Part shown: positions 1 through 34,305 of the stretch, in pieces
Layout: each line of letters begins with the position of its first letter
Numbering within the stretch: position 1 is the first letter of the stretch
Assembly: GCA_007126515.1 (NCBI GenBank)
Contig: SLBD01000028.1
Span: 1 to 49,573 of the forward strand
Reading direction: 5' to 3'
DNA length: 49,573 bases
Origin: Kiritimatiellia bacterium
GTDB lineage: Bacteria; Verrucomicrobiota; Kiritimatiellia; SLAD01
The notes under the pieces: generated by a model
What the model was told of the DNA's origin: nothing
Seen by the model: only the letters and a program-made list of their open reading frames with translations
The model's database searches: none
Position numbers and translations under genes: made by a program

Positions 1-977
1 GCATCCCCCTCGCCTTTGCTAATGTAGTCCGACGCGGCCCCATCGGCATTGTTGCGGCCTCGGGCACCGGCTTGCAGGAAGTCTCATCGTTCATTCATAA
101 TCTCGGCAGCGGCGTTTCCCACGCGATTGGGACCGGCGGACGCGACATCAAATCGGACGTGGGCGGTCTCACCTTTTTGTCTGCACTTACAGCGCTCAAA
201 GAGGATCCTGACACGCAAGTGGTTGTGCTGGTTTCGAAGACACCCGATGCGGATGTGCTGGAACGGATTGGAAAAGCGGTTGCAAATCTAGGCAAACCCG
301 CCGTCGCGATTTTCATTGGGGCCGATCCCGAAGTGGTAGCGAAGTCTGGAGCGATTCCGGCGCAGACCCTCGAAGAGGCGGCTCGGCGAGCTGTGGCCCT
401 GGCTGAGGGAAAGGCCTTGAGCGATGCAGAGCTTGCCTGCCCTCCCCTGCCCGACTCCATCCAGCGGCGCGAGGGTGGACGCTATGTGCGCGGGCTGTTT
501 TGTGGCGGCACGTTTTCGCAGGAAGCTGTTCACTTGCTGAAGCCGGTTCTGGGAGACATTTGCACCAACGTCACCGGCGAGCTGGAGGATCCCGATCACA
601 GTGCGGGACACACGATCATCGACATGGGCGGCGATGAATTTACGGCGGGGCGGCCGCATCCCATGATTGACTACTCACTGCGTAACAAGCGCATCGTGCA
701 AGAAGCTCAAGATCCAGAGACAGCCGTCATTTTAATTGATGTTGTGTTGGGCTTTGGTTCCAACATGAATCCTGCGACAGAATTGCAGCCTGTCCTCGAA
801 GAGGTTCGGGCCTTAGATAATCCGCCGCCGATCGTTTTTCATGTCTGCGGCACCGATGCCGATCCTCAGCAGCGCAATGCCACCGTCCAACGCCTACGCG
901 ATGCCGGGGGAATCTGGGCAGAATCCAACGCCATCGCCGTCCAGTGGGCGGGGCAACTGATCGAGGAGCAACAATGA
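1..977 (+). CDS. fdrA: FdrA-family acyl-CoA synthetase-like protein (succinyl-CoA synthetase alpha-like fold), C-terminal part; the 5' end lies outside the window
   Basis: Frame 3 is open from the window edge (IPLAFANVVRRGPIGIVAASGTGLQEVSSFIHNLGSGVSHAIGTGGRD...) and carries glycine-rich CoA-ligase type motifs. The stop TGA at 975-977 overlaps the ATG of the next gene (ATGA), as in the fdrA-ylbE pair of E. coli. Confidence 0.8.
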   Translation, partial: IPLAFANVVRRGPIGIVAASGTGLQEVSSFIHNLGSGVSHAIGTGGRDIKSDVGGLTFLSALTALKEDPDTQVVVLVSKTPDADVLERIGKAVANLGKPAVAIFIGADPEVVAKSGAIPAQTLEEAARRAVALAEGKALSDAELACPPLPDSIQRREGGRYVRGLFCGGTFSQEAVHLLKPVLGDICTNVTGELEDPDHSAGHTIIDMGGDEFTAGRPHPMIDYSLRNKRIVQEAQDPETAVILIDVVLGFGSNMNPATELQPVLEEVRALDNPPPIVFHVCGTDADPQQRNATVQRLRDAGGIWAESNAIAVQWAGQLIEEQQ

Positions 978-2359
978 CTGACTTATTGTCTAAACCTGTT
1001 CGTGTCATCAACGTCGGCATCGAAGAATTTGATGCCAATATCCGTGCCAGTGGTGGCGTGAGTCAGCATGTGCAATGGCGACCGCCGGCACCGATCGCGG
1101 CCGCGACGTTGCGCAAGCTCATGGAAACCGAAACAGCGCGCAACGAAGCCAATCAAGAGGCGTTGCAGCGATTGCAACGCGCCAAGCCTGTATTGACGGG
1201 AATGGGCGTGGCGCTCGACACCATTCCCGGCATGGCCAAGAATTTGTTTCTGCACGCGGGGCCGCCGATCACGTGGGATCACATGTGCGGTCCCATGCGT
1301 GGGGCCATGATTGGCGCCGTCCTTTATGAAGGACTGGCCGACACGCCTGAAGCGGCGGAAGAGCAATTGGCGAGTGGCGCCTATCGCTTTGCGCCTTGCC
1401 ACGAGCATGCGACCGTGGGCCCGATGGCAGGCGTCGTGTCTGCGTCCATGCCGGTCTTTATTGTCGAGAATCAAGCCGATGGCAACCGCGCCTACTGCAC
1501 GCAGAACGAAGGACTCGGCAAGGTCCTCCGCTACGGGGCGTACTCGGACGAGGTCGTCAAACGGCTGAAATGGATGGAAGAGGTGATGTATCCCGCTCTG
1601 CAAAAGGCGCTGCAGGCATCGGGTGGCATCGATCTCAAAAATCTGATTGCCCAAGCCTTGCACATGGGCGACGAAGTCCATAACCGCAATCGAGCCGGCA
1701 CATCGTTGTTCCTGCGTGCCATCACTCCGTGGTTGGTGCGAACGGCGACGGACTTGGAAACAGCCGCCTCCGTGATCGACTTTATCAACGGCAATGACCA
1801 TTTCTTTCTGAATTTATCGATGCCCGCCTGCAAAGCCTCGCTCGATGCAGCACGCAATGTCGAGGGCAGTTCCATGCTCGTGTGCATGGCCCGCAATGGG
1901 ACTGACTTCGGGATTCAATTGTCCGGGACGGGCAACGCCTGGTTTACGGGTCCGGCGCTGGTGCCGGATGCCTTGTTCTTTGCCGGATATACCAAAGACG
2001 ATGCCAATCCCGACATTGGTGACAGCGCCATTACCGAAACAGCGGGTTTGGGCGGCTTCGCGATTGCGGCGGCGCCAGCGATTGTCCAATTCGTTGGCGG
2101 CTCGGCAGGTGATGCGATGAATTACACGCTGGAAATGTATGAAATCGCCGTAGGCGAAAACGGTGTCTTTCAAATACCTGCCTTGGATTTTCGCGGCACA
2201 CCCACCGGCATCGACGCCGTTCAAGTTGTGCGCAAAGGAATTGTACCGTTCATCGACACCGGCGTCGCCCACAAAGATGCCGGAGTCGGCCAAGTCGGCG
2301 CGGGCGTTGTCAGCGCCCCGATGGATCCGTTTATCAAAGCCGTTGAAGGCTTAGCCTGA
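974..2359 (+). CDS. DUF1116 domain protein (YlbE-like)
   Basis: The long ORF is 944-2359. The ATG at 974 (MTDLLSKPVRVINVG...) overlaps the fdrA stop. Its size (461 aa) and its position directly after fdrA match the YlbE/DUF1116 family. Confidence 0.75.
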   Translation: MTDLLSKPVRVINVGIEEFDANIRASGGVSQHVQWRPPAPIAAATLRKLMETETARNEANQEALQRLQRAKPVLTGMGVALDTIPGMAKNLFLHAGPPITWDHMCGPMRGAMIGAVLYEGLADTPEAAEEQLASGAYRFAPCHEHATVGPMAGVVSASMPVFIVENQADGNRAYCTQNEGLGKVLRYGAYSDEVVKRLKWMEEVMYPALQKALQASGGIDLKNLIAQALHMGDEVHNRNRAGTSLFLRAITPWLVRTATDLETAASVIDFINGNDHFFLNLSMPACKASLDAARNVEGSSMLVCMARNGTDFGIQLSGTGNAWFTGPALVPDALFFAGYTKDDANPDIGDSAITETAGLGGFAIAAAPAIVQFVGGSAGDAMNYTLEMYEIAVGENGVFQIPALDFRGTPTGIDAVQVVRKGIVPFIDTGVAHKDAGVGQVGAGVVSAPMDPFIKAVEGLA

Positions 2360-8068: not shown

Positions 8069-9058
8069 ATGAATATGCAGCCTCCAACCAACGTCCAATC
8101 ATGCATGAATGAAACGAAACCAGCTCGCGTAGCGCCTGTCGCCCTGCCGGTCGCTCTCATCTGCATGGCCTTCCTTGCTGTCGGCTGTGGCACACTGCAA
8201 CATGACCCGATTAGCGGCCGCCAAGTACGTAACATGTATGTCATCGACCAAGAGATCGAGCTCGGTCGTGGCGTGGTTCAGAATGCCGTTGAGGAATTCC
8301 AGCAACAAGGCATTCCCATCAACCAAGATCTTGCCACATTACAGGTCCTCTCCAACATGATGCATCGGATCGCCGCAGTGTCACATTTTCCCGAACTACC
8401 CTACAGTGTGACACTGGTTCATTCTGATGTCGTCAATGCCGCCTGCGCCCCTGGCGGTCAATTGATTTTCTGGGAAGGGCTCTACCATCCCGAGCAGGGA
8501 CTCGTGAAAAACGAAAATGAACTGGCCGCCGTGATGGCTCATGAAATTGCCCATGCCACAGCCCGCCACACCACGCGCACATTGACACGGGAAGCGCCCA
8601 TCCAAATAGGCCTTCTCTTGGGTATGCTGGCCGCCGAGCTCGCAGACAAAGAGGATCTCGCCATTGGGCTCGGGGTGGCGTTTGTTGTGTACCAAGGCAT
8701 CTGGTTGCCGCGTTATTCGCGCCGAGATGAATTCGAGGCAGATCGGCTCGGACTTTTCTACATGGCAGATGCGGGATATGATCCTCGTGCTGCCTCCGCC
8801 ATCTGGCAACGGGCTTGGCAGCGGCAGGGAGATCCCGGCCTGGAACGATTTTTGGCTTCTCATCCCTCGCACCGGGATCGCCATCATCAACTTGAACGCT
8901 TGATGCCGCAGGCATTGGAGCGATATTATGCCTCCATTAATCAGTCATCGCCTTTGGCGGCCCGACCCGATGCCCTGCCTAGCTCAGCGACAACGGAATC
9001 GACTGCGGCCCAAATGCCCGCGACAGTCGGCAGTCATGGACGAGCTGTTCAGCGTTAA
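8069..9058 (+). CDS. M48 family zinc metallopeptidase, probable lipoprotein
   Basis: HEIAHATARH is the HExxH motif, with a downstream EFEADRLGLFYMADAGYDP. A lipobox-like FLAVGC is present. An alternative start lies at 8105. Confidence 0.85.
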   Translation: MNMQPPTNVQSCMNETKPARVAPVALPVALICMAFLAVGCGTLQHDPISGRQVRNMYVIDQEIELGRGVVQNAVEEFQQQGIPINQDLATLQVLSNMMHRIAAVSHFPELPYSVTLVHSDVVNAACAPGGQLIFWEGLYHPEQGLVKNENELAAVMAHEIAHATARHTTRTLTREAPIQIGLLLGMLAAELADKEDLAIGLGVAFVVYQGIWLPRYSRRDEFEADRLGLFYMADAGYDPRAASAIWQRAWQRQGDPGLERFLASHPSHRDRHHQLERLMPQALERYYASINQSSPLAARPDALPSSATTESTAAQMPATVGSHGRAVQR

Positions 9059-9077
9059 ACAATAGGGAGTTTGAGAA

Positions 9078-9464
9078 ATGGCAAAGTGGACAGTACTTGT
9101 TGGAACCATCCTGACAATCGTTGGGATCTTGTCGGCATCGCTAGCCGACACAGGCATTGCCGGGCTTTTTCCGGCTTTTATCGGCATTCCGATTGTTGCC
9201 CTTGGGGCGCTTGGGCGGATCAACTATGATCAACGCAAGCCACTACTCATTGGGGCCATTGCCATAGCAGCCTTGGGGTTTGTGCGAACGGTTGGAGATA
9301 TCCGATTGGGGCTCTACCTGATTTCCGTAGGCCCCGTTCACGTAGATCATCCTGATCAAGTCGTCACGCACTCGATCATAGCCATCGTTTGCGGAGCGTA
9401 CTTGTACGGGGGATGGCGATGGCTGCGGACACCCCCGCGCCCGCAACCGGCCTCAAACCTTTAG
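9078..9464 (+). CDS. Hypothetical integral membrane protein (about 4 TM helices)
   Basis: The 128 aa ORF follows the M48 gene after 19 nt, with GGGAG upstream. The sequence is hydrophobic throughout. Confidence 0.6.
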   Translation: MAKWTVLVGTILTIVGILSASLADTGIAGLFPAFIGIPIVALGALGRINYDQRKPLLIGAIAIAALGFVRTVGDIRLGLYLISVGPVHVDHPDQVVTHSIIAIVCGAYLYGGWRWLRTPPRPQPASNL

Positions 9465-9635
9465 TTCTTTGAGCTTCGCTCGCACCTGCTTGTCATTCAA
9501 TTGACGCAAGGTATCTTCTGTCACACCTGCCGCCAGCAATCGGTTGCGGTGCTCCAGAACTCGGCGCCGACGCGCCGCACCGGTCTTTTTGGGACGCAAC
9601 AAATTCTTATTCTTCGTTAGTTTTACTCGTGCCAT
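9453..9635 (-). CDS. Small, highly basic hypothetical protein (60 aa)
   Basis: The internal ATG at 9635 in ORF 9453-9671 gives MARVKLTKNKNLLRPKKTGAARRRRVLEHRNRLLAAGV.... The gene overlaps the convergent membrane-protein gene by 12 nt. Confidence 0.5.
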   Translation of the reverse strand: MARVKLTKNKNLLRPKKTGAARRRRVLEHRNRLLAAGVTEDTLRQLNDKQVRAKLKELKV

Positions 9636-9947
9636 AATATCATCCTTCCACACAAACGGGGTGTTCTCCAATAAAAGCGCCGTACCATACCCGCCCTAAC
9701 CGCCGCTGGCAACATCAAACCAACACCCACAAGAGTAATTCTTTCCGGCCATTAGAAGGAACTTGACTCCTGAGTCGCAACAACGCGTTGAGTCTGCCAG
9801 ATCACCATGTCCAATTATGCCAGACACATATACCCGGCATACATTGGGAAGGCAGGGCACACTCACCCGACTACGCGAGGAAGCTACGTCGGACAAGCCG
9901 CCCGCCCTACCCGGTACGTTTATGCCGAACAGTTTGCGTGAATCGCA

Positions 9948-10652
9948 TTAAAAGCGGAATCCAAGACGGCCCCCAATGATTCGTGTGTCATCTTCTAAAT
10001 CCTGCCAAAACGTTCCCCCTAGCAGAAAATTATCCGACAACCAGAAGTTTACAGACGCGTTTATCGAGTTACGCGTGTCCTCGATGTCTGCGTCGCCAAG
10101 GTCGGCACCGAGTTCGTCGCTGAACAAATCAGGGGATTGACCGTCTGTCCGAGCCACACCAATCAAGACGGATAATTGATCGGTAAAACTAATTTCCACA
10201 CCAGCAGAGAGGATCAATGCAGATTCCCAATCATCGTCAGAGAAACGCTCGTCCATGGCCCGCACTTCCACCTCTACCAATGTGTAGGAGTAGGCTACCC
10301 CCACATAGGGATTAATCATTTGCCCGGGCAAGAACTGAAGCCGTGCCCCGCCGACAAACGCTGTCAGATCGCTATCCAGGGAGGCCCGCATGCCGACCTC
10401 ACTTATACTTCCGTTGATGGATGTCCGGCTGACATTGGCCAACAGGGAAAGGTAGTCGCCCAAAGGTAGTTGAAGCCCGACCCCATAGACATAGATGTCA
10501 TCGAGAAAAGATTCCACTTCGTCGAAATCATCACCCAATTGAACGATGCCAAGCTCGCCACTAACAATGCGCTTTCCTAATGTCGATGCATGAGACACAT
10601 CCACCAGAGAAACGACAATCAACGCAACTAAGCCGCCTATGACTCTCTTCAC
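9948..10652 (-). CDS. Outer-membrane beta-barrel protein (OmpA-beta/OmpW-like small barrel)
   Basis: The sequence shows an alternating amphipathic strand pattern and a C-terminal GGRLGFRF with a terminal aromatic residue. The signal peptide is KRVIGGLVALIVVSLVDVSHA. The GTG at 10652 is preceded by AAGGAAGGTGG, although the ORF opens at 10742. Confidence 0.7.
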   Translation of the reverse strand: MKRVIGGLVALIVVSLVDVSHASTLGKRIVSGELGIVQLGDDFDEVESFLDDIYVYGVGLQLPLGDYLSLLANVSRTSINGSISEVGMRASLDSDLTAFVGGARLQFLPGQMINPYVGVAYSYTLVEVEVRAMDERFSDDDWESALILSAGVEISFTDQLSVLIGVARTDGQSPDLFSDELGADLGDADIEDTRNSINASVNFWLSDNFLLGGTFWQDLEDDTRIIGGRLGFRF

Positions 10653-10830
10653 CTTAGACCACCTTCCTTGTGTTATACACAATACGTGAACCATTCCAAC
10701 TCGTAATCGGCATGACTTTTGCCCAACAGAGACTTGCATCATACCTCACACCATAAACTATGATTGAACCTTTGCGCGGGCTGTGTCAAACAAGAAGCAT
10801 GGAATCAAAGTCGATTTCTTTTAGACCCCC

Positions 10831-10861
10831 AAAAAGTAATCACGGGGTTACAAACCCTGTG
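10831..10861 (-). terminator. Possible intrinsic terminator downstream of the Hsp70-like operon
   Basis: The minus-strand RNA reads CACAGGGUU-UGU-AACCCCGUG, which forms 8 pairs plus one A.C mismatch, followed by AUUAC and UUUUU. A second 7-bp hairpin, ATGGATG/CATCCAT, lies at 10882-10902. The spacer before the U-run is atypical. Confidence 0.3.
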
Positions 10862-10944
10862 AACTGCGCCGCTATCGGGGCATGGATGATGCCGCCATCC
10901 ATACCTCAAGTATTAGATATCGATAGGCACACTTGCAGCGTTGA

Positions 10945-13737
10945 TCACACTCGCAGCAACAAGCCGGCGGGCATTGACTCGCCCTGTGAGCGACGACTTT
11001 CATCGCCCTGCAGTTGACCGCCCTCAAGGACCAGTTCAATCCAATGCGACGGCGCGGATGCGGCCTCAAGACGACGTACCACCCGTTCACGCAGGTCGCC
11101 AGAAATGTCTAGGTAGCGATCCCCCGTCCTGCGGGCCAAAGACATCAATGTGAACAACCACTCATCTTCCCCATATGACCCTGCGAGCAGTCTTTCCAGC
11201 CACTCGCCAACCACTTCCGCAGATAATAGATGGTTTTCCTCGCCATACATCGGCACTCGGGCACCGGCTCGGCCCAGCCCCCATAATGCAGCACGCCGAT
11301 GCGATGTCGGCACATTCCGGCGCTGTTGATAGTCGATCAAATAGCGCCCCCATACTTCTCGCTGAGTGACCGGCAATCGCTCCAACCATGAGATCAATCG
11401 AATCCATTCAACCGTCTCATGATCGGCCAACCGCACGTCCCGCTGCAAGAGTCGCACTTTGGGTTTGCCGCCGAATAGTTGCCGTGCGACGGATAGAATC
11501 GGCGCAGCCAAGGTGGATTGTTGCCCCGCGGTCAACCCCGCCGCGAGCCGCCGCCAGAGGATCCACCATTCGGCCCTCACTGTCTCCTGCGTATAATGAA
11601 TGGGCCCGTCGTGCCAGATTTTCCACATTTCCGCCACCCGCCAGTCGTCCAGAGCCACACCGCATCCCGGGCGTAAGAAATACCCCATCAAATTCAACCA
11701 TCGTTGCTCATGAGCGGCGGATCGTTGCCGATACGCAGTCTCCTCTCGCAAGGCACTCCACAGTGCTCGCAACAAGGTCGCTGGCCATTCCGAACGCGGT
11801 AAGGCCAATTCCGACTCCAAGTGCTTCATCACCGACGTATTTTCCAGCACTGCGGCCTTCCCTGTAAAGGCGTGCTGCACAACTGCAATCGCAGATGCAG
11901 TCCGTTCCGCATCGACAATCCCGCCGGCTTCCCCTTCCCCCGCATGAAACGTCAAATCGGCCTGCGTCGCTGCTCGCAGATCAAACGTCAATTTCCATGA
12001 CCGCGATCCGTCCGCCTCCTGAATTCGCACATCGAGGCTACCCAACTCCGTCAGGTGACATACGACATGCACATCGATACGATCGTTCACCGCTCGTTTC
12101 CCTGCCGTCAAAATCGTCCGCAGCGGCGGCAACGCGGTATACAGCTCAGGGGGCTCCATGACGACGCGCTCACCAGCCGTGTCCACAGTTCGGCTACTGG
12201 ACACATACAAGGGGAATTCAACCGGCGTTTTCAGACGCGCCTGCAAGGGATGCTGATCCAAGGTGAACGACTCCCCTGCCATCGCACCTGCTGGTGCCAC
12301 ACACAGGGCATGCCTTTGCCCATCGCTATCCGTCGATTCCAATCCCAAATAGTAAGCTCGGGCCAAATCGCTGACGATGCGAATACCATGTCCCCGCCGC
12401 ACCCAGCCGTAATACGCAGCTCCTCGTGCCACGGCCAAATCCAATCGCTGATGAGGCAGCAGGGTCGGACACCGGTCCCCAAACCAGGCAGTCAATACAT
12501 CTTGAAGTCGCCGCCGCATAGCCTGCGACTCAAACAATCCGCCGTTCAGCAATAGGTGTTGCGGCGGGTTCGGTCGTCCGTCAGGATCGGAGGGTGCATG
12601 CGTGCGCAGAAATTCGGCGAGATACCGGGTAATGGCGGCATCAGCCGCGTAAGGCAAGCCAAACTCGCGGAACCCAGATCGGCGCCGAGCAGGCGACTCG
12701 GCCAAATCTACGAGCGGCAGGAAACCGTCTAACAAGAGTCGCTCCACGTCGGATTTCGTCAGGGTTGCCTGCCGCTGGGCAGCTAGCAGCTTGGCCCCAC
12801 GGCTTGGCAAGGTCACCTCCACCTGGTCCGGCGCATTCTCTCCCAGTAACACTTCTTTCTGATGGCGGCAGAGGCGTGTGAGCGTGGACCAAGATGCCGG
12901 GTCCAAGGTCTCGTCCCCCCACTGCGATTCGATATGATGGGCCAAGGCCAGATCGAGATTATCGCCGCCCAGAATGAGATGCTCTCCCACAGCGGCACGA
13001 TGAAACTGGGCATCGCCGGCACGGGTCGTACGGGCATGGATCAGAGTCAAATCGGTCGTTCCGCCGCCCACATCGCAAATCAAAATCTGATCGCCCGGCT
13101 GAATCGTATTTTGCCAATCCGCTTCATGATCGGACAGCCAGGCATAGAAGGCGGCTTGCGGCTCTTCCAGCAAAATGGGGGCAGGGATTCCCGCTTGCTG
13201 CGCCGCATTGATTGTCAATTCCCGAGCCGCCTCGTCAAACGACGCCGGCACCGTAATGAACACATCTTGTTCGGCCAACGGCGCATCGGAATGGGCTTCG
13301 TCCCAGGCAGCGCGGAGATGTCTGAGGATCATGCTCTGGGCTTCGACAGGAGAAATGGCGGCAACATCCGCCGCCGCATGCCACGGCAAGATATCTGCTT
13401 CGCGATTGACACCGCCATGGCAAAGCCACGATTTGGTGGAGGCAATGTAGCGGCCCGGCGCGAGGGCGCCATGATCGCGGGCATGAATCCCCACACGAAA
13501 GCGCGCATCCACCTGCCGATCCGCTTCGGTGACTTCGTCGGGAAGCAGCGCGTACAGGAAAGACGGCAACGTATCGCGTCGTTCCCGCACACCAGCCGCC
13601 GTGTATTGAGGAATCGGTACATCCACGATTTGGTTCGTGGCGGCTGGTTCCACAGCCGCCATCGCGCACTGGGTGGTTCCCAGGTCGATGCCAACCACGA
13701 ACCGGGCTGGTTGCCGCTCATTTGGAGCCGCATTCAT
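10945..13737 (-). CDS. Hsp70-family ATPase with a long helical C-terminal extension (930 aa)
   Basis: The Hsp70/actin-fold motifs are present: VVGIDLGTTQCAMA (phosphate-1), ITVPASFDEAARELTINAAQQAGI, ILICDVGGGTTDLTLI (phosphate-2), GGDNLDLAL and LLLNGGLFES (adenosine). A beta-rich segment ends at about aa 588 (WKLTFDLR), followed by about 340 aa that is Trp/Arg/Leu-rich and probably helical. Confidence 0.9.
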   Translation of the reverse strand: MNAAPNERQPARFVVGIDLGTTQCAMAAVEPAATNQIVDVPIPQYTAAGVRERRDTLPSFLYALLPDEVTEADRQVDARFRVGIHARDHGALAPGRYIASTKSWLCHGGVNREADILPWHAAADVAAISPVEAQSMILRHLRAAWDEAHSDAPLAEQDVFITVPASFDEAARELTINAAQQAGIPAPILLEEPQAAFYAWLSDHEADWQNTIQPGDQILICDVGGGTTDLTLIHARTTRAGDAQFHRAAVGEHLILGGDNLDLALAHHIESQWGDETLDPASWSTLTRLCRHQKEVLLGENAPDQVEVTLPSRGAKLLAAQRQATLTKSDVERLLLDGFLPLVDLAESPARRRSGFREFGLPYAADAAITRYLAEFLRTHAPSDPDGRPNPPQHLLLNGGLFESQAMRRRLQDVLTAWFGDRCPTLLPHQRLDLAVARGAAYYGWVRRGHGIRIVSDLARAYYLGLESTDSDGQRHALCVAPAGAMAGESFTLDQHPLQARLKTPVEFPLYVSSSRTVDTAGERVVMEPPELYTALPPLRTILTAGKRAVNDRIDVHVVCHLTELGSLDVRIQEADGSRSWKLTFDLRAATQADLTFHAGEGEAGGIVDAERTASAIAVVQHAFTGKAAVLENTSVMKHLESELALPRSEWPATLLRALWSALREETAYRQRSAAHEQRWLNLMGYFLRPGCGVALDDWRVAEMWKIWHDGPIHYTQETVRAEWWILWRRLAAGLTAGQQSTLAAPILSVARQLFGGKPKVRLLQRDVRLADHETVEWIRLISWLERLPVTQREVWGRYLIDYQQRRNVPTSHRRAALWGLGRAGARVPMYGEENHLLSAEVVGEWLERLLAGSYGEDEWLFTLMSLARRTGDRYLDISGDLRERVVRRLEAASAPSHWIELVLEGGQLQGDESRRSQGESMPAGLLLRV

Positions 13738-13754
13738 TGTTTTCGCTTCCCGAA

Positions 13755-15548
13755 TCAGTTCTCGCGAACGCTGAACTCAAGCTTCCACCGCTCATCGCTG
13801 ACCGTACTGGCGCACCAGCATTCCAGCACGCCCAGTTCCGTCACATGTGTTTCGATCCGAACAGGGACATACCCCCCTTCGGCATTTGCGGCGGCGGGGA
13901 GTTCCGCCTCAAGCGAGTCGGTCTCTTGCAAGTCGTCTTCATCCCACCGGGTCAGCAAAAGTCCAGGCTGATCGTGGACGCGGCGCGCCGAGCTAAAGAA
14001 TCGGAAATGCATCGGCTCTCCCACCACCAAACCAATTTCCTCGCTGGGCACCTGAATGGAGGTCCCCTCTTCCATGCCATGCGGCACTACACAGAGAGCA
14101 TGCAGTGGCCGCGGCGCTCCAGGCACCGCCAACCCCGCCGTCTCAATGCCAATGTAGTAAGCGCGCGCCGTACCCCCACGAATGCGCACTCCGCCTGCTT
14201 GCTTGATGCGGCCATACTGCGCAGCTCCCCGCGCCACGGAAAAGTCGAGATCTTCGCTGCCGGACAAAGAGGCAGGCGCTTCCTCTCCCGGGAACCACTG
14301 CTCGAAAAACGAGCGGACGCGCTCCTTTAGTGCTGCCGACTTAAACACGCCACCATTGAACAACAGATGCGTGGGACGCTTTGCCGCCGCTGCATCGGTT
14401 TGCGTATGTCCAGCAAGGAAGCGAGCCAGATGCCGTGTAATGGCTGTATCCGATTCATACGGGAGTCCCAACTGCTTAAATCCGGACGCTGGGCGCTTTT
14501 GCGGTTTGTCTGTGATTTCACATGGAGGCAGGAATCCTTCGAGCAAGGTTTTTTGCGCCACATCCCGATGCAACTCCACGGACAGCGACCCGCCAATGAC
14601 TTTGGAACCTCGTCCGAGAATCGTCACTGGATGGGACTCCGGCCCGTCCGGCGCCAGCAGCGCTTCCTTGGCAAGGCGACAGGCATGCCACAACGAAACC
14701 GACTGCCAAGCATCCAGCGTATGCCCTTGCTCCTTGAACAGCTCCTGCACGGTGAAAGCCAATGTCAGGTCCATGTTGTCGCCGCCCACCAGAATATGAT
14801 TTCCGACGGCCAGTCGAGACAGCTCCAAATCGCCGTCCCGATCCTCAACAGCGATCAGGGTAAAGTCCGTTGTCCCGCCCCCCACATCGCAGACCAGAAT
14901 CATGTCGCCGACATGTAACTCCTTGCGCCACTCCTCGCCGCGATGTGCCAGCCACGCATAGAGCGCTGCCTGCGGTTCCTCCAACAAGATGAAGTCGGCC
15001 GGGAATCCGGCTATCACCGCTGCCTCACGCGTCAAATCGCGGGCGCTGGCATCAAATGAAGCAGGTACTGTCAACGTCACTTGCTGTTGCTTGAACGGTG
15101 CCTCCGGGTGGTGCTGATTCCACGCGTCCGCCAGATGCCGCAGATACAGAGCCGAGGCAGCAACAGGAGAAACCTTGCCAACGTCCTCGGGCGCATTCCA
15201 AGGCAAAATCGCCTGGTGTCGGTCCACGCCAGAATGACAGAGCCATGACTTGGCTGCGGCGACGGTTCGGGTGGGCACGTCCGCCGATTGTGCCCGCGCA
15301 AACTGTCCCACCACGCCAGATGCCTGTTTGACAGAGGAGAGCTGCAAGGCCCCTCCCTCTCGCTCCACGTCCGTGGGCAGATACAAAAAGGACGGCAGCA
15401 AGGGCCGGTGTTCGGCCACTGTGGCTGTCGTCATTTGCGGAATTTCCAGCAACTCAACTGTCGGCGCCTCATCTGCCAATGATACATAGGCAAGTGCGCT
15501 GTTGGTTGTACCTAGGTCAATACCGATTGAATATAAAGGATCACTCAT
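13755..15548 (-). CDS. Hsp70-family ATPase, short form without a helical lid (597 aa)
   Basis: The motifs are SIGIDLGTTNSALAYV, TLTVPASFDASARDLTREAAVIAGF, ILVCDVGGGTTDFTLI, VGGDNMDLTL and HLLFNGGVFKS. The protein ends right after the beta-rich segment (WKLEFSVREN). It lies 17 nt upstream of the 930 aa paralog. Confidence 0.9.
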   Translation of the reverse strand: MSDPLYSIGIDLGTTNSALAYVSLADEAPTVELLEIPQMTTATVAEHRPLLPSFLYLPTDVEREGGALQLSSVKQASGVVGQFARAQSADVPTRTVAAAKSWLCHSGVDRHQAILPWNAPEDVGKVSPVAASALYLRHLADAWNQHHPEAPFKQQQVTLTVPASFDASARDLTREAAVIAGFPADFILLEEPQAALYAWLAHRGEEWRKELHVGDMILVCDVGGGTTDFTLIAVEDRDGDLELSRLAVGNHILVGGDNMDLTLAFTVQELFKEQGHTLDAWQSVSLWHACRLAKEALLAPDGPESHPVTILGRGSKVIGGSLSVELHRDVAQKTLLEGFLPPCEITDKPQKRPASGFKQLGLPYESDTAITRHLARFLAGHTQTDAAAAKRPTHLLFNGGVFKSAALKERVRSFFEQWFPGEEAPASLSGSEDLDFSVARGAAQYGRIKQAGGVRIRGGTARAYYIGIETAGLAVPGAPRPLHALCVVPHGMEEGTSIQVPSEEIGLVVGEPMHFRFFSSARRVHDQPGLLLTRWDEDDLQETDSLEAELPAAANAEGGYVPVRIETHVTELGVLECWCASTVSDERWKLEFSVREN

Positions 15549-15602
15549 AGTTCGATCACTTTCTTATTGAAATGGAATGAGAATACAAAGGGGGACGTGG
15601 AA

Positions 15603-16106
15603 TCAGGATATTTCCACCTCAGCCGGGGCCACAATCCAGGCGGCATCGTCGCTGCCGGTCCAAGCGGGCAGCTCGTGACGAGTCAACGTCCAGCCATGAT
15701 GTCGGAGGATGCCTTGGCTGGCTTCTGAATCGACGCGGCCCGTCAACTTCCATGCCCCCGGATCACGGGTAGCTGGCAGCTCCACCGATTCGCCCTCCGC
15801 CTCGGCACGAAGCGACTGGAGGCCGAACAAGCGATCAAGGGCTTGACTGCAATCGCGATGGATATCACGTACCGCCGCGCCGATTTGCGCGTCGGAATAG
15901 CCGTCAATGGACTCCTGCAAGAAATCCACCAAGCGCCCTTCCCGCTGCAAGGTTGCCAGCAATTCGATGGCCGCCGTGCGACGCGGAGCCGGAGATGGCT
16001 TGGGCAGAACCGGAGCGGGCCGCTCCAGCCAAGCAGACAGATCGGCCGCAAACGACTTGTCACGGATCGTTCTAAAAAACGTTTTAATTGCTAAAGATAA
16101 ACTCAT
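15603..16106 (-). CDS. DUF2760 domain protein
   Basis: The ATG at 16106 gives MSLSLAIKTFFRTIRDKSFAADL..., an N-terminal amphipathic segment. The ORF opens with a TTG at 16118. The ~167 aa size and the position directly upstream of Hsp70 paralogs match my recollection of the DUF2760 (PF10816) context. Confidence 0.65.
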   Translation of the reverse strand: MSLSLAIKTFFRTIRDKSFAADLSAWLERPAPVLPKPSPAPRRTAAIELLATLQREGRLVDFLQESIDGYSDAQIGAAVRDIHRDCSQALDRLFGLQSLRAEAEGESVELPATRDPGAWKLTGRVDSEASQGILRHHGWTLTRHELPAWTGSDDAAWIVAPAEVEIS

Positions 16107-16288
16107 GATGACTCTCAAAAAATAAAATAGGATTGGGCGGAACAGGCAAAGTCCCGCATTCGGTGTGCCCCGTTACAGCAAAGCACCGATTGAGACAAGC
16201 CAGAAATGAAGGTCTTTAACAAAGAATTGTGGTTCGGGATCAATCGTAGTACAACTGGAATGTTCATTAATCACGAAGGAATCAGATC

Positions 16289-17587: not shown

Positions 17588-18295
17588 ATGAACGAACCTA
17601 TTCCAGAATCTGACCGAGTGTCAGAATCGGACCCTGTGCCCGTTGCCTGGCCGGTATTAAGCAAAGTGCAAGTTCGCGTGCTGGGCTGTCTGATGGAAAA
17701 GGCCAACACGACGCCCGAATACTATCCGTTGACGCTGAATGCGCTGACAAACGCTTGCAATCAAAAATCGAATCGAGATCCGCTGATGTCCTTGTCCGAG
17801 GCGGATGTGATTGACGCGTTGGACGGTTTACGGCACACGCACAGGTTGGCGGCGCTGGTGCATACGGCGGGCAGCCGCGTGGAAAAATTCAAGCATACGA
17901 TTACGCAAGTCATCGAATTGAACCCACGACAAGCCGCCATTCTTTGCGAGTTACTGTTGCGCGGTCCTGAGACCGTCGGAGAACTGCGGACGCGGGCTTC
18001 ACGCCTGCATTCATTTCACGACTTGAACGAAGTTCAGAGTGTGCTAGATGAACTGGCCGCTCATGCCGGAGGTCCGCTGGTTGTGCGCCTTCCGCGCGAG
18101 CCCGGACGCCGCGAATCGCGTTGGATGCATGCCCTTGCAGGCACGCCCGAAGCTGCACCGGATCAGGAGCCTGAAAATGCCTCATCACCGACGGCGACGG
18201 GAGAATCGGCGCTACGGGAAGAAGTAGATCAAATCAAGGCCGAGTTGGAATCGTTGAAAGCAGATTTCGACCGGTTCCGTCAACAATTTGAGTAG
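17588..18295 (+). CDS. yceH: DUF480 (YceH) family protein
   Basis: VRVLGCLMEKANTTPEYYPLTLNALTNACNQKSNRDP is the characteristic YceH N-terminal block. A C-terminal coiled coil is also present. Confidence 0.85.
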   Translation: MNEPIPESDRVSESDPVPVAWPVLSKVQVRVLGCLMEKANTTPEYYPLTLNALTNACNQKSNRDPLMSLSEADVIDALDGLRHTHRLAALVHTAGSRVEKFKHTITQVIELNPRQAAILCELLLRGPETVGELRTRASRLHSFHDLNEVQSVLDELAAHAGGPLVVRLPREPGRRESRWMHALAGTPEAAPDQEPENASSPTATGESALREEVDQIKAELESLKADFDRFRQQFE

Positions 18296-18302
18296 GGAAG
18301 CG

Positions 18303-19715
18303 ATGAAATACGAATTTGATGCAATAGTCATTGGACTGGGCCCTGCCGGAATGGCGGTCAGTATTATGGGCGCTGAAATGGGGCTGAAGATTTGTGCCAT
18401 TGAAAAACGGGCCATTGGCGGCGAATGCATGAACATCGGCTGCATCCCCAGCAAGGCCATGCTGAAGATGGCCCGGGCCCGGGCCACGGTCGGGGAGCTG
18501 GAGAAACTGGCCATGGCACCGCTGCCATTACCTGACGTGCAAAATCCGTTTGCCAAGATCGCCGCCGACTTAAAATACATTGGCGAAGCCAAAAACAAAA
18601 AAATGTTCGAGAAGGTTCACCTCGTACTGGGTGAAGGGGCGGCCGAATTTATCGACTCACATACTGTAGCGGTTGGTGGACGTCGCTATACGGCCAAGCG
18701 CATATATATTTGTACGGGAACCCGTCCAGCGGTCCCACCCATTACCGGGCTCGATCAATTGGAGATTCTGACGAACGAGAATGTGTTTCATTTAGATCGC
18801 ATTCCAGAAAGCATGACCATCATCGGCGGTGGCGCGATTGGCTGCGAGATGGCGCAAGCATTCACTCGCCTGGGCTGTCGCTGCGCCATTGTGCACATGG
18901 ATGCTCGACTATTGCCACTGGGTGACACCGACCTGGGCGCAGCCTTGGAACAGGCCTTTCAGCGGGAAGAGATTCCTGTCTACAATGGCCGTCACATCCG
19001 TAATGTCGAAAAGCGGGCCGATGGTCAAGTGGTGTTGACCACTGAAGAGGGCGACGAGTTGGTTGCCGAGCGACTGCTAGTCGCGGCGGGGCGGTCCTCC
19101 GTACATGCCTCGTTGCAACTGGACAAAGCAGGTGTGCAATTCGACAAGCGAAAGATTCCCGTCGATAAATATCTGCGTACGTCGCAAAAGAATATTTTCG
19201 CTTGTGGCGATTGCAACGGCCATTCCCTGTTCACTCACGCCGCCATGCATCAGGGAATGCTGGCGATCATGAACAGCATGATTCCGGGACCCTTCAAAAT
19301 CGACTATCGCAAGTTTGTCGTCCCGTGGACCGTCTTCACAACGCCGATGATCTCTCAGGTGGGTCGCAGTCGCCAGGAACTCGAGCAGGCTGGGGTGCGA
19401 TTTGAAGAAGTCACCTGCAAATATGAAGACTACGGGGCCGCCATTGCCGAAAACATCGCCGAAGGATATGTGAGCGCGTACATCACACCCACCGGACGGA
19501 TTCTGGGTGCCAAAATTGTTGGCGAAGGGTCCGGCGAGATGATCGGTGAATGGGCGCTGGCGATTCAGAAGAAACTGCGAATCACCGACATCATGATGCT
19601 GCAGCATTCCTTCCCGACCATGTCCTTCCTGACCAAGCGCGTGTCCGAGACCTGGATGATGGGCATGATGAAATCCGAGCGGATCAAGAATCTGTGCCGG
19701 TTTATGTTCCGCTGA
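18303..19715 (+). CDS. FAD-dependent pyridine nucleotide-disulfide oxidoreductase (class I, dihydrolipoyl dehydrogenase / mercuric reductase-like)
   Basis: The motifs are FDAIVIGLGPAGMAV (FAD GxGxxG), the redox disulfide GGECMNIGCIPSK, MTIIGGGAIGCEMA (the NAD site) and ACGDCNG. The ATG at 18303 lies inside ORF 18288-19715. Confidence 0.88.
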   Translation: MKYEFDAIVIGLGPAGMAVSIMGAEMGLKICAIEKRAIGGECMNIGCIPSKAMLKMARARATVGELEKLAMAPLPLPDVQNPFAKIAADLKYIGEAKNKKMFEKVHLVLGEGAAEFIDSHTVAVGGRRYTAKRIYICTGTRPAVPPITGLDQLEILTNENVFHLDRIPESMTIIGGGAIGCEMAQAFTRLGCRCAIVHMDARLLPLGDTDLGAALEQAFQREEIPVYNGRHIRNVEKRADGQVVLTTEEGDELVAERLLVAAGRSSVHASLQLDKAGVQFDKRKIPVDKYLRTSQKNIFACGDCNGHSLFTHAAMHQGMLAIMNSMIPGPFKIDYRKFVVPWTVFTTPMISQVGRSRQELEQAGVRFEEVTCKYEDYGAAIAENIAEGYVSAYITPTGRILGAKIVGEGSGEMIGEWALAIQKKLRITDIMMLQHSFPTMSFLTKRVSETWMMGMMKSERIKNLCRFMFR

Positions 19716-22602: not shown

Positions 22603-25600
22603 TTGTATCTTAAAAATCTTGAGTTGATTGGCTTTAAAAGCTTTGCATCCAAGACTCGGCTCCAGTTTGAGCCGGGCATGACGGCTATTGTGGGCCCGAA
22701 TGGATGCGGGAAAAGCAATATTTCTGATTCGATCCGCTGGGTCTTGGGTGAACAAAGGGCCAAAGCCCTCCGCGGCTCAAAAATGGAAGATATCATTTTC
22801 AATGGTACGGACTCTCAAAAACCGCTGTCCATGGCGGAGGTCAGCATCACCCTGGCAGATTGCGAATCCACGCTAGGCACCGATTACAACGAAGTGACTG
22901 TGACACGTCGCGTGCTCCGTTCGGGTGAAGGCCAGTATTTTATCAACAAGACGCCCTGCCGCCTCAAAGATATTCAGCGCCTGTTTATGGATACGGGAAT
23001 TGGCACCAATTCCTATTCATTGATGGAACAGGGCCGCATCGATCAGATTCTCAGCTCCCGGCCCGAGGATCGTCGCGCCGTATTTGAGGAAGCGAGTGGG
23101 ATCACCAAGTTTAAGGCAGATAAAAAGGAAGCCATCCGCAAGTTGGACCAAACGGAAGCCAATCTGCTGCGCCTGGCCGATATCATCCGCGAGGTTAAAC
23201 GCCGGATCATCTCGTTGCAGCGTCAAGCGGGGAAAGCCAAACGCTACAAGTCGCTTCAGGAGGAATTGCGGGCCTTTGACACGTATCTTTCCCGCGATCG
23301 TTTAAAGCAGCTGGCTACAGAGATTACTGCGCTGGAAGAAAAACTGGCAGCGATTCACGGCGGCGAAGAGTCGGCTCGCGCCACCATTCAACAAACGGAG
23401 CAGCAAGCTCACGAGTTGCGGTCCCGCGTTCAACAAAAGGAAGATGAAATTGCGCAGGCAATGGAAGCGGCTTCGCGAACCAATGCAGAGAGGGAACGAG
23501 CTGAGCAAACCATTCAGGTCAACCAAGACCGGATCAAGGAACTCAAACAACTGTCCGAACGTGATCATCGGGATGCGCATGAAGCCCATGAGCGGGTGAA
23601 CGTGCACCGCACAACGTTGGTTGAGGTGGGCGAACAATTGAGCGCGGCCGAACAAGCCCGCATGGATGCAGATGCGGATGCTCAATCCAGCGCAGCAAAA
23701 CTGCAAGAAATGGATGCAGCGGTCCGACAGATTCGCGATTTGTTAAATCAGTTGCGAAGTGAATCGGTGGACCTCGAAAGTCGGGGGGCGCGGTTGCAGA
23801 ATGAACTGTCCGACCTGGATGCTCGCGAGCGCAATAGCGTGACCCGACGCGAACGACTGGCCGCTGAATTGGCGGCAACCCAGCGAGCCGTTGAGAAATT
23901 TGAAAGTCGCAAGTCCGAGGCGGAAGCGCACATGAACTCGCTGCGCGAGGCGGTTGCCACACAGAAAGAACAAGCGCAGACGTTGCAATCGGAAAAGAAC
24001 AATTTGCGCGACTTGATGGCTACCGAAAGAAAACGCCTCGGCGAATGGCAACAAAAGGTGGCGGCGCGAGAAGCCCAGACGGAACTCTATCGACAATCCG
24101 AGGCGGAAGCAGAAGATGTCCCGCCCGGAGCGCGACGGATCTTAAGTTCTGACGAAGAACCATTGATCCCTGCAGATCAAGTGCTGGGAACGTTGGCAGA
24201 TCACATCCAGGCTCCCGAGGAATTTCAAAAGGCACTGGAAGCAGTGCTACGGGCGTGGCTGGATGCCGTCATTGTGTCCGATCCTGCTGCGCTTCAGAAT
24301 GCGTTGGCGGCCCTCGAATCAACGGGAGCGGGGTCGGCCCGGTTGCTGGCGATGGACGCAGCGATGGACGCGACCGATTCATTTCATGATCTTCCAGGCC
24401 AGGCCCTTCGTGACTGCGTGAATGTGTCTGATCGCGCCACTGGCTTGGCCAATCGCCTGTTTGCCGGAGTCCGCATTGTGGATTCGTTGACAGACATTCA
24501 ATCTACAGATGTTTCTCCGGCAGCCGTCTTTGTGACGCGTACGGGGCTGGTCTTGCGAGGAGGCGCAGGTGAAATCTGGATGCCAAGCGCACAAGAAACC
24601 AATCCCCTGAAGCGGCGGCACTTGCTGACCCAGTGGCTGGGCGAGTTGGATGAATTGCGCAATCAAATGGCGCGGGCTGAACTGGCCCTGCAAGAGCTAC
24701 AAGAGCGAGATCATACAGTCGACGAACAACGCGCGGCTGTGCAAAAGGCGCTTGATGAAGCGCGGCACGAATTATCGCTTTGCGAAGGCGAACATCGCGT
24801 CAAAGCACAAGAAGCCAAGCAAGCAGCGCAACAAATGGAAACCGTGTCGTTCGAGCTGGAGCAACTGGTTCAACAGCAAGCTTCCAGTGGCGAGCGACGG
24901 CAAAGCATCATTGACGAGATAGAATCGGCGCGCTCTCGACAAGCCGATGTCCGACACGAAATCGCTTCTCAAACCGAGACCTTGCAGAAGATGGAAGATG
25001 AGCGAGGGCAATGGCTGTCCGAGGTGACGGAAAAGCGCGTCTTGCTTGGGGAACGCCGACAGGCTGTGGCTCAACTGACGGCTCAACGCGAGGATTTACA
25101 GAACCGAATTACCGAGCTGGACGCATTAATTCAGGAACGCCGCCAAGGACTCGACAGCTACGAGACGCGAATTGAAGAGCTCAGCCAACATGTTGAAAAA
25201 ACCCAAGCCCGCTTGCAACCGTTGGGTGACCAGTTGGCTCAGCAAAAGCAGGCTCTAGAACAAGCCCGCCAGAATCGGGAAGATCACACGCTGGCATTGC
25301 GGCACATGGAAAGCCAGCTGCATGAGCATCGCACCGCACTCGAAGAGGTGCGAAATCAGCGATCGAAGTTGGACGTGGAACTGGCGGAACAACGGCTGCG
25401 CCGCCAGACAATTGTGGACCGACTGTCGCAAGAATATCGTCTCTCCCCCGAGGAGTTGGAAGAACTGCCTGAACCGCAGTGGGAGAATGAGCAGCAACCG
25501 GATCGCGACACGCTCGAAACCATGATTGCTGAAATTCGGACCAAATTGGATTCGATGGGTCCGGTGAATTTGATCGCTATTGAGGAACACCAAGAGTTGG

Positions 25601-26202
25601 AAGAGCGCTTTGAGTTCTTAACGGCACAACAGGACGACTTGGTTAAGGCCAAGAATCAGTTGCTCGACATGATTCGCCGGATCAACAACACGACGACCGA
25701 TATGTTCAAACGCACGTTCGAACAGGTTAACGAAAACTTCCAAAAGACCTTCAAACAATTGTTCGGGGGGGGCTCGGCTCGATTGGTATTGGTCGACGAC
25801 GATGATGTCCTCGATTCCGGCATTGAGATTATTGCCCGTCCGCCGGGCAAAAAATTGCAGACCATCTCATTGCTGTCCGGTGGAGAACGTACCATGACAG
25901 CCGTGGCTTTGTTGTTTGGGTTGTACATGGTCAAGCCGAGTCCTTTCTGTGTGTTGGACGAGCTGGACGCGGCCTTGGATGACGCCAACATTGGCCGTTT
26001 TGTGGGGATGGTGCAGGAGTTCCAAGCAAATTCACAATTTGTTGTAATCACCCACAACCGTCAAACGATTGAAGCGGCCGATGCGTTGTATGGTGTAACG
26101 ATGGAGAAATTTGGTGTCTCCAAAATTATGTCCGTACGGTTCAACAAGCACGAGGCAGGCGATGCCGCGGACTCGACCGAGACGGAACCGCAGGACGAGT
26201 AG
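22603..26202 (+). CDS. smc: Chromosome segregation protein SMC
   Basis: The 1199 aa protein begins MYLKNLELIGFKSFASKTRLQFEPGMTAIVGPNGCGKSNISDSIRWVLGE (Walker A). It has long coiled coils, a central hinge and C-terminal LSGGERTMTAVALLFGLYMVKPSPFCVLDELDAALD. The TTG start is preceded by GGAGGA. Confidence 0.97.
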   Translation: MYLKNLELIGFKSFASKTRLQFEPGMTAIVGPNGCGKSNISDSIRWVLGEQRAKALRGSKMEDIIFNGTDSQKPLSMAEVSITLADCESTLGTDYNEVTVTRRVLRSGEGQYFINKTPCRLKDIQRLFMDTGIGTNSYSLMEQGRIDQILSSRPEDRRAVFEEASGITKFKADKKEAIRKLDQTEANLLRLADIIREVKRRIISLQRQAGKAKRYKSLQEELRAFDTYLSRDRLKQLATEITALEEKLAAIHGGEESARATIQQTEQQAHELRSRVQQKEDEIAQAMEAASRTNAERERAEQTIQVNQDRIKELKQLSERDHRDAHEAHERVNVHRTTLVEVGEQLSAAEQARMDADADAQSSAAKLQEMDAAVRQIRDLLNQLRSESVDLESRGARLQNELSDLDARERNSVTRRERLAAELAATQRAVEKFESRKSEAEAHMNSLREAVATQKEQAQTLQSEKNNLRDLMATERKRLGEWQQKVAAREAQTELYRQSEAEAEDVPPGARRILSSDEEPLIPADQVLGTLADHIQAPEEFQKALEAVLRAWLDAVIVSDPAALQNALAALESTGAGSARLLAMDAAMDATDSFHDLPGQALRDCVNVSDRATGLANRLFAGVRIVDSLTDIQSTDVSPAAVFVTRTGLVLRGGAGEIWMPSAQETNPLKRRHLLTQWLGELDELRNQMARAELALQELQERDHTVDEQRAAVQKALDEARHELSLCEGEHRVKAQEAKQAAQQMETVSFELEQLVQQQASSGERRQSIIDEIESARSRQADVRHEIASQTETLQKMEDERGQWLSEVTEKRVLLGERRQAVAQLTAQREDLQNRITELDALIQERRQGLDSYETRIEELSQHVEKTQARLQPLGDQLAQQKQALEQARQNREDHTLALRHMESQLHEHRTALEEVRNQRSKLDVELAEQRLRRQTIVDRLSQEYRLSPEELEELPEPQWENEQQPDRDTLETMIAEIRTKLDSMGPVNLIAIEEHQELEERFEFLTAQQDDLVKAKNQLLDMIRRINNTTTDMFKRTFEQVNENFQKTFKQLFGGGSARLVLVDDDDVLDSGIEIIARPPGKKLQTISLLSGGERTMTAVALLFGLYMVKPSPFCVLDELDAALDDANIGRFVGMVQEFQANSQFVVITHNRQTIEAADALYGVTMEKFGVSKIMSVRFNKHEAGDAADSTETEPQDE

Positions 26203-34185: not shown

Positions 34186-34229
34186 CTCCCCAGTGTTTTC
34201 GACTTAGAAGCAAACGCTCCCTTGATGTG

Positions 34230-34305
34230 GGCCGGTAGCTCAGTTGGCAGAGCACGGGCCTTTTAAGCCTGTTGTCGTGGGTTCGAGCCCCACCCGGCTC
34301 ACCAC
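34230..34305 (+). tRNA. tRNA-Lys (anticodon UUU), CCA encoded
   Basis: I folded the cloverleaf by hand. The acceptor stem is GGGCCGG/CCGGCUC (one G.U pair) and the D arm is GCUCAGUUGGCAGAGC. The anticodon stem is CGGGC/GCCUG with loop CUUUUAA. The T arm is GUGGG-UUCGAGC-CCCAC, followed by discriminator A and CCA. Confidence 0.93.

Follow-up and report, generated by a model that had tools for sequence, protein, structure and literature searches.

A DUF2760 protein and two lid-less Hsp70-type ATPases form a recurrent, uncharacterised gene module in bacteria

In the current view, Hsp70 proteins rely for their function on J-proteins and, where bacteria are concerned, also on GrpE. The canonical bacterial systems, DnaK–DnaJ–GrpE, HscA–HscB and HscC–DjlC, are built from a catalytic nucleotide-binding domain (NBD) of actin fold, a beta-sandwich domain that follows it, and partner genes in an operon. 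Other arrangements bring two Hsp70-type proteins together: Hsp110/Grp170 with Hsp70, Hsp110 being restricted to eukaryotes, and the yeast ribosome-associated complex (RAC) triad of Ssb, Ssz1 and Zuo1, in which one Hsp70 is atypical and lid-less and a terminal segment of the partner protein engages the atypical beta domain. Here we describe a three-gene locus on a contig of a Kiritimatiellia bacterium (SLBD01000028.1, assembly GCA_007126515.1; the whole stretch analysed, 49,573 nucleotides or 49.6 kb, is called the window below), which encodes a DUF2760 protein followed by two paralogous Hsp70-type ATPases of 597 and 930 residues. All three features named above for the canonical systems are present at this locus, but both paralogues lack the helical lid, the VLLLD interdomain linker and the residues that contact J-domains, and a J-protein or GrpE gene was found in none of the neighbourhoods examined.

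As with Hsp110 and Hsp70, the two paralogues are probably paired, and the linker of the larger one has diverged while its C-terminal part is extended and helical; Hsp110, however, keeps a lid-derived helical bundle, whereas here the extension is a DUF3731 tail and both partners are lid-less. The locus resembles RAC in combining two Hsp70s with one dedicated partner, and RAC structures occur among the Foldseek matches of the 930-aa protein model. The RAC partner, in contrast, is a J-protein, whereas DUF2760 has neither a J-domain nor an HPD motif, and the link to the ribosome is a feature of RAC. A full-text literature search returned no paper naming DUF2760, DUF3731, PF10816 or PF12531. A 2026 review speaks of lid-less DnaK derivatives as such as an unexplored 'dark matter', a class to which no function has been assigned (PMC13580251), and a survey of Myxococcus Hsp70s treats them likewise. 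An earlier note on this DNA, made from its letters, had presented the locus as a candidate for an uncharacterised system; this stands for the module, which is undescribed in the literature, but not for the lid-less DnaK derivatives, which are already a recognised class. We conclude that the module is real, widespread and uncharacterised. We further propose, with a probability of about one half, that it is a dedicated and heteromeric Hsp70 machine, probably situated near the membrane and served by a cofactor of its own; we infer its mechanism below. That the genes form a dedicated, functionally linked module is far better secured than the single steps of this mechanism.

The three open reading frames (ORFs; Table 1) lie in the same direction on the minus strand at 10945–16106, with gaps of 54 and 17 nt, which confirms the coordinates and spacing reported previously. 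Their order and spacing fit a single operon, in agreement with the suggestion that they are probably one transcript. The automatic ORF listing opens the DUF2760 ORF at TTG 16118; because homologues align from ATG 16106, where they begin, the latter is the preferred start, as had been proposed before.

Species-representative genomes (one per species) were scanned with two conserved DUF2760 peptides, giving at least 594 confirmed DUF2760 matches. We examined the loci of the best 80 of these, which come from Kiritimatiellia, Verrucomicrobiota, Planctomycetota, Lentisphaeria, Fibrobacterota and a few other groups, and took as informative the 55 with at least 6.5 kb downstream. At 44 of the 55, a 597-type gene lies directly downstream of DUF2760 on the same strand; 23 of these 44 carry the full triad, always in the order DUF2760–597–930 and with a 930-type protein that has the tail. 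The conserved core is therefore the pair of DUF2760 and 597-type genes, so that the triad of the earlier note recurs in its order, but the unit that is kept is the pair (44/55), with the 930 type linked at 23/55. The triad order recurs in bacteria of the Planctomycetota–Verrucomicrobiota–Chlamydiota (PVC) group, Fibrobacterota, Myxococcota, and Alpha- and Betaproteobacteria, and the same triad was seen in Caballeronia, Burkholderia and Cupriavidus. DUF2760 and the Hsp70 paralogues hence adjoin one another far outside close relatives, which is what the co-localisation check suggested earlier was meant to establish. Estimated median intergenic distances are ~78 nt between DUF2760 and the 597 type and ~30 nt between the 597 and 930 types, with many start/stop overlaps, including overlapping start and stop codons in a Planctomycetaceae triad. 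One protein of 1536 aa, P0157, is a fusion of the 597-type and 930-type units in gene order, and its gene immediately follows a DUF2760 gene. P0187 (Polyangiaceae, 1499 aa) also looks like such a fusion, but has a low-complexity Arg/Ala-rich junction and is probably an artefact of frameshift read-through.

Three further loci show the module in other settings. A full triad lies at 8312–14161 of locus L091, on the conjugative plasmid pCC829_3 of Bradyrhizobium barranii, directly after Trb conjugal-transfer genes and preceded by a MarR-family regulator; because the triad rides on a conjugative plasmid, the module can move horizontally. On plasmid pTs485 of Candidatus Thiodictyon syntrophicum (L092, 8695–11213), a DUF2760–Hsp70 pair without a 930-type gene lies amid genes annotated as anti-phage (DUF3780, DUF1156, a PLD-like protein), with a VapC toxin, a Uma2 endonuclease and a TIR-domain protein also close by, the sole defence-island context among the loci seen. 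In a Planctomycetaceae locus (L051, 10595–12350), the 597-type match is spread over several frame-shifted pieces, with DUF2760 and 930-type genes that look intact; this 597-type gene may be a pseudogene or reflect an assembly error.

Both large proteins belong to the Hsp70 superfamily. Their PF00012 scores are 53.6 bits (597 aa) and 59.3 bits (930 aa) against a cut-off of 20.6, and a profile search with PF00012 and PF10816 confirmed both family assignments of the earlier note. The best scores to the NCBIfam DnaK and HscA models, 65–89 bits, lie far under the equivalog cut-offs of 620–822, and we therefore regard the paralogues as superfamily members and not as DnaK, HscA or HscC orthologues. 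The nearest named homologues of the window proteins are from Kiritimatiellia. Both paralogues were aligned to their Caballeronia orthologues and to three E. coli proteins, DnaK, HscA and HscC. The DnaK residues D8, G10, T11, K70, E171, D194, G196–G198, T199, D201, G228/G229 and G341/G342 are all present in both paralogues, and the catalytic and nucleotide-binding residues are invariant in each family (36 sequences for the 930 type, 61 for the 597 type). Because of this invariance in both families, neither paralogue is a degenerate pseudo-ATPase, and both are predicted from their sequences to be ATPase-competent Hsp70 homologues; the alignment to DnaK and HscC thus speaks against the degeneracy of both sites that had been considered earlier.

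Every motif reported previously (DLGTT, VPASFD, DVGGGTTD, GGDN-DL, NGG, KSWLCH...ILPW...SPV and WKL-F) was found. The KSWLCH block had not been recognised from canonical DnaK. It is present in both paralogues, but is not a wholly foreign insertion: because its lysine aligns with the catalytic K70, the block corresponds to the K70 strand together with a remodelled subdomain IB, and its GVDR...ILPW...SPV part stands in for most of that subdomain. Invariant positions are K100, S101, W102, L103, R110, L115, P116, S127 and P128 among 61 orthologues of the 597 type, and K102, S103, W104, L105, H107, G109, R112, L117, P118, W119 and P130 among 36 sequences of the 930 type.

The 597-aa protein consists of an NBD (~1–452) and a beta substrate-binding-like domain (~453–597), in which the segment from 'ARAYYIGIE' to 'WKLEF' matches the beta substrate-binding domain of DnaK; because its C-terminus coincides with the end of that domain, the protein has no helical lid. 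The 930-aa protein has an NBD and beta domain in residues 1–590 and then a helical tail (~600–930) that is not a lid. The absence of a lid from either paralogue is in line with the earlier observation, and the extension of about 340 aa in the second paralogue is likewise confirmed and predicted to be all-helical. The best Foldseek match of the 930-aa model is truncated DnaK (7kru_B, E 3e-23, template-modelling score 0.65 on the target over ~600 columns), and the modelled fold of residues 1–590 is that of the DnaK NBD and beta domain. In both paralogues the interdomain linker reads VRIRGG or IRIVSD instead of the VLLLD of DnaK, and the window proteins have I, E and Q where DnaK has its J-domain contact residues R167, N170 and T173. 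Within the 597-type beta domain, residues 455–530 (window ~13959–14186) are unusually conserved across phyla, with the invariant motifs RI.GG, YY.GIE, GMEEG and FRFF.S. Such conservation exceeds what would be expected of a domain that binds peptides promiscuously, and hints at a single fixed partner.

The tail of the 930-aa protein, left unnamed in the earlier note, is DUF3731 (PF12531, 'DNA-K related protein' in Pfam), the only family that Pfam assigns to it. It is of helical-repeat type and ends in a conserved FGESxPxGL motif, and residues 600–930 of the AlphaFold model (predicted local distance difference test score, pLDDT, 79.4) are all-helical. A profile search found no relatives of the tail among PDB sequences (best E 0.24), and matches to ARM repeats in that search were sub-threshold only (E 1–3).

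The DUF2760 protein matches PF10816 over profile positions 3–124 of 124 (E 6e-40) and belongs to a family of 2,094 clusters at 50% identity. From its N-terminus, it comprises conserved helices, then a Pro/Ala-rich linker whose length varies, a globular domain and finally a conserved tail. In the family alignment, many charged residues of the globular domain are invariant, and the domain carries the motifs LQREGRLVDF, YSDAQIGAAVRDIHR and HHGW. In the tail, A160, P161, A162, E163, V164 and E165 are invariant or at least 90% conserved, and the tail motif lies no more than 5 residues from the C-terminus in 82 of 123 representatives. The N-terminal helices (residues 2–27) are a candidate membrane-proximal or partner-binding element. 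Of the 150 best DUF2760 representatives, ~14 have at least two transmembrane-like segments where the others have the N-terminal helix, from which the earlier idea of DUF2760 as adaptor or anchor gains some ground; this is the best available hint that the N-terminus may set the protein at the membrane. Searches with the DUF2760 model (pLDDT 88.5) gave no significant match among PDB folds (best E 0.84) or in a viral fold library (best E 0.83), and no relative was found among PDB sequences. As candidates for a hidden helper, a J-protein (hhalign probability 1.4% against DnaJ) and GrpE (0.1%, and absent among the listed fold matches) were both rejected; the earlier statement that DUF2760 has no HPD motif is correct, and it has no J-domain either.

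Neither of the usual Hsp70 helpers was detected around the module. E. coli DnaJ, HscB, DjlC and GrpE gave no significant tblastn match in the window (best E 0.5), and a Pfam scan of 20 window ORFs at 72–31940, which left out those from ~32 kb onward, found no J-domain or GrpE, in keeping with the earlier observation that the window has no DnaJ-like or GrpE-like gene. The same four queries had no tblastn match at 82 related loci. The 146 nearest neighbours, taken from 37 loci, have diverse functions, neither J-proteins nor GrpE recur among the 25 most frequent of their 107 families, and all-against-all clustering of flanking ORFs revealed no fourth conserved gene. Because J-protein and GrpE genes are absent from the 82 loci, and because the linker and R167/N170/T173 are lost, independence from these helpers is supported.

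These data allow us to propose how the module might work. Because P0157 fuses both paralogues in gene order, the 597-type and 930-type proteins would form a hetero-complex. By analogy to Hsp110 and Hsp70, they may pair NBD to NBD, for which the fusion P0157 is the sole, indirect (Rosetta-stone) support. One paralogue could then drive nucleotide exchange on the other, and with such mutual exchange GrpE would not be needed. DUF2760, which is assigned to the 597-type protein because it is its near-obligate neighbour, would be the dedicated cofactor or adaptor of that protein and may replace the J-protein. Its N-terminal helix would keep the complex by the inner face of the cytoplasmic membrane, and its acidic tail (PAEVE) could dock in the beta-domain cleft or on the helical tail, for which the C-terminal LPxGL peptide of the 930-aa protein is a second candidate docking epitope. 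ATP hydrolysis would remodel one specific client or complex and not proteins in general. A fuller version would have the module as the first bacterial Hsp70–Hsp70 heterodimer machine, with mutual nucleotide cycling and a membrane-tethered DUF2760 of new fold replacing both J-protein and GrpE, acting on a specific membrane-proximal client in hundreds of species of PVC bacteria, Fibrobacterota, Myxococcota and Proteobacteria; we regard this version as speculative and rather unlikely.

Several observations weigh against a dedicated heteromeric machine. The 80 loci are those closest to the query and no random sample of the family. At 21 of the 44 pair loci, the pair has no linked 930-type gene within 10 kb; in Thalassoroseus a 930-type gene stands alone elsewhere in the genome, and pair-only loci therefore need not be without it. 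DUF2760 has no Hsp70 gene within 10 kb at 10 of the 55 informative loci, so its partnership with Hsp70 is not obligatory in cis. P0157 is the only clean fusion of the two paralogues. Regarding the membrane, the N-terminus of the window DUF2760, previously called amphipathic, has a hydrophobic moment of 0.41–0.44, which 512 of 2000 shuffles reach, so that the description gains little from it, and the variants with transmembrane-like segments could include gene-calling artefacts. Lastly, DnaJ, GrpE or DnaK encoded outside the window could serve both paralogues. The earlier note had spoken of a self-contained machine that is not a general chaperone: 'self-contained' was an overstatement, as only 49.6 kb were in view and DnaJ or GrpE may lie elsewhere in the genome, but the idea of a dedicated machine is strengthened by the recurrence of the module and its intact catalytic sites. 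Nothing that the note had named as speaking against its idea was found, be it a lack of co-localisation beyond close relatives, degenerate ATPase sites in both paralogues, separate transcription or a function already published for the triad.

The alternative that survives best is that the paralogues are accessory co-chaperones of the housekeeping DnaK, either Hsp110-like exchange factors or disaggregation boosters, with DUF2760 as a regulator. Exactly such an accessory role has been put forward for NBD-containing DnaK derivatives, which are confined to genomes that encode a canonical DnaK as well (PMC13580251). A diverged linker and the loss of features for J-stimulation, as in Hsp110, agree with this role, as does the fact that only 49.6 kb of the genome are in view. 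However, the catalytic residues are invariant and the beta domain is highly conserved in both paralogues, which are fused to each other and not to DnaK, and the constant neighbour is DUF2760, never dnaK, dnaJ or grpE. On this evidence, we consider the accessory role unlikely, but the one to be taken most seriously.

DUF2760 has many invariant charged residues, and two conserved terminal peptides that resemble binding epitopes; these could also point to a signalling or regulatory Hsp70 switch, in which DUF2760 is the client or output and is held or released on cue, as modelled on yeast Ssz1 and Myxococcus StkA. Regulatory Hsp70 homologues outside the heat-shock response are known, StkA among them (PMC4319316), and the Myxococcus xanthus StkA locus is comparable in being a small operon with such a homologue in a specialised role. 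Its gene content differs, however: StkA is followed by SCP2-like and PhaE-like genes, with no DUF2760 or second Hsp70 (PMC4319316), and we rejected it as an instance of the same module. In Vibrio cholerae, the operon VC1373–1375, annotated 'DnaK-related protein', is reported to be repressed in biofilm, with HapR activating the VC1375 promoter (PMC10328515, PMC9201469), but this operon is likened to the triad by the wording of its annotation only, and its identity with the triad is unconfirmed. As no signalling domain or regulator was found as a conserved neighbour, a regulatory switch appears improbable.

The 930-aa protein resembles in its architecture CnuD of the CoCoNuT systems, in which an Hsp70 NBD and substrate-binding domain are joined to HEAT-like repeats in type III McrBC-like systems (PMC11090510), so that an anti-phage or conflict system must be weighed. 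The Thiodictyon plasmid pair amid annotated anti-phage genes and a TIR protein, and the carriage of a triad by a conjugative plasmid, would be consistent with defence. However, CnuD is tied to McrB-like GTPase and McrC (DUF2357) homologues, which are absent from the neighbourhoods of our module, and its Walker A motif is degenerate (PMC11090510), whereas the ATPase motifs are intact here. When the three window proteins were tested with PADLOC, the weak match to PDC-M61B (E 0.0028) was not significant, and defence models were not enriched among the 146 neighbours. The genes around the window triad are housekeeping genes and none of 50,697 phage records contained homologues, which together make a defence function very improbable. 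That the proteins form an actin-like (ASKHA) cytomotive or membrane-remodelling filament system and no chaperone is hardly credible, as the possible membrane association of DUF2760 and weak MreB and BeeR family matches (E 1e-4 to 7e-8) would fit it, but those scores lie far under the curated thresholds, Hsp70 models score far higher, and the beta substrate-binding-like domain and the whole fold agree with DnaK.

Table 1. Features of the DUF2760–Hsp70 locus in window coordinates, with the evidence for each.
Feature	Position	Strand	Evidence
DUF2760 gene, 167 aa	15603..16106	-	PF10816 E 6e-40; AlphaFold2 model pLDDT 88.5
597-aa lid-less Hsp70 paralogue	13755..15548	-	PF00012 53.6 bits; alignment to DnaK, HscA, HscC
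930-aa Hsp70 paralogue with DUF3731 tail	10945..13737	-	PF00012, PF12531; AlphaFold2 model pLDDT 79.4
N-terminal conserved helices, DUF2760 residues 2–27	16026..16103	-	alignment; predicted helical 3–15, 17–27
C-terminal tail APAEVEIS of DUF2760, near-invariant, acidic	15606..15629	-	family alignment
KSWLCHSGVDR...ILPW...SPV block, 597-aa protein residues 100–129	15162..15251	-	K100 = DnaK K70
KSWLCHGGVNR...ILPW...SPV block, 930-aa protein residues 102–131	13345..13434	-	family alignment
DUF3731 domain, 930-aa protein residues 673–928	10954..11721	-	PF12531 E 2e-69, profile positions 1–248 of 248
3' untranslated region with two hairpins	10827..10944	-	RNA fold -42.9 kcal/mol, z = -2.45
Divergent intergenic region between DUF2760 and N-acetylglutamate-synthase-like genes	16107..16288	.	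sequence reading

The two hairpins that had been noticed after the last gene are both present, a strong one of 11 bp at 10879–10905 and a weaker one near 10827–10847, and the 121-nt region 3' of that gene has a folding z of -2.45; a terminator scan flagged no canonical intrinsic terminator in 10827–10944. At the other end, 16107–16288 is the presumed promoter region of the operon, and a promoter scan found no sigma-70-like site in it. Overall, the promoter and terminator scans performed at chance level, and the intergenic gaps gave no flagged element.

The operon is surrounded by ordinary chromosomal genes, which encode SMC, an N-acetylglutamate-synthase-like protein, BacA, MsrB, sensor kinases and an outer-membrane beta-barrel protein. 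The SMC chromosome-condensation gene (22603–26202, plus strand, 1199 aa) and a single tRNA-Lys(UUU) gene (34229–34304, plus strand) indicate an ordinary chromosomal setting. Just downstream of the operon, at 9948–10742 on the minus strand, lies the beta-barrel gene (PF13505, with a typical C-terminal Phe), which has its own sigma-70-like promoter match at 10760–10789 and whose adjacency to the triad is not kept elsewhere. Two genes from the operon (17588–19715, plus strand), a DUF480 gene overlaps by 8 nt with a gene for a pyridine-nucleotide-disulphide oxidoreductase; an oxidoreductase of this family also lies immediately upstream of a lone DUF2760 gene in another locus (L064, 8363–10369), possibly by coincidence. 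At 8069–9464 (plus strand) there is an M48-family peptidase with a lipoprotein-like signal (LAVGC); 19 nt further on comes a 128-aa protein, which has several hydrophobic stretches and matches no Pfam family. At the start of the window (72–2359, plus strand), CoA-ligase-like and AllG (oxamate carbamoyltransferase subunit) genes overlap by ~30 nt, which suggests a purine or allantoin catabolic cluster.

If the module is indeed a dedicated Hsp70 machine made of two intact lid-less Hsp70s and a cofactor of unknown fold, with neither of the usual helpers, the picture of Hsp70 dependence on J-proteins and GrpE would change. The module would also test whether Hsp110-style pairing of paralogues has an independent bacterial origin. 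It would, moreover, be a tractable experimental starting point for exploring the 'dark matter' that the 2026 review sees in bacterial DnaK derivatives (PMC13580251). As Burkholderia, Cupriavidus and Bradyrhizobium, which carry it, can be cultured, it is open to genetic and biochemical work.

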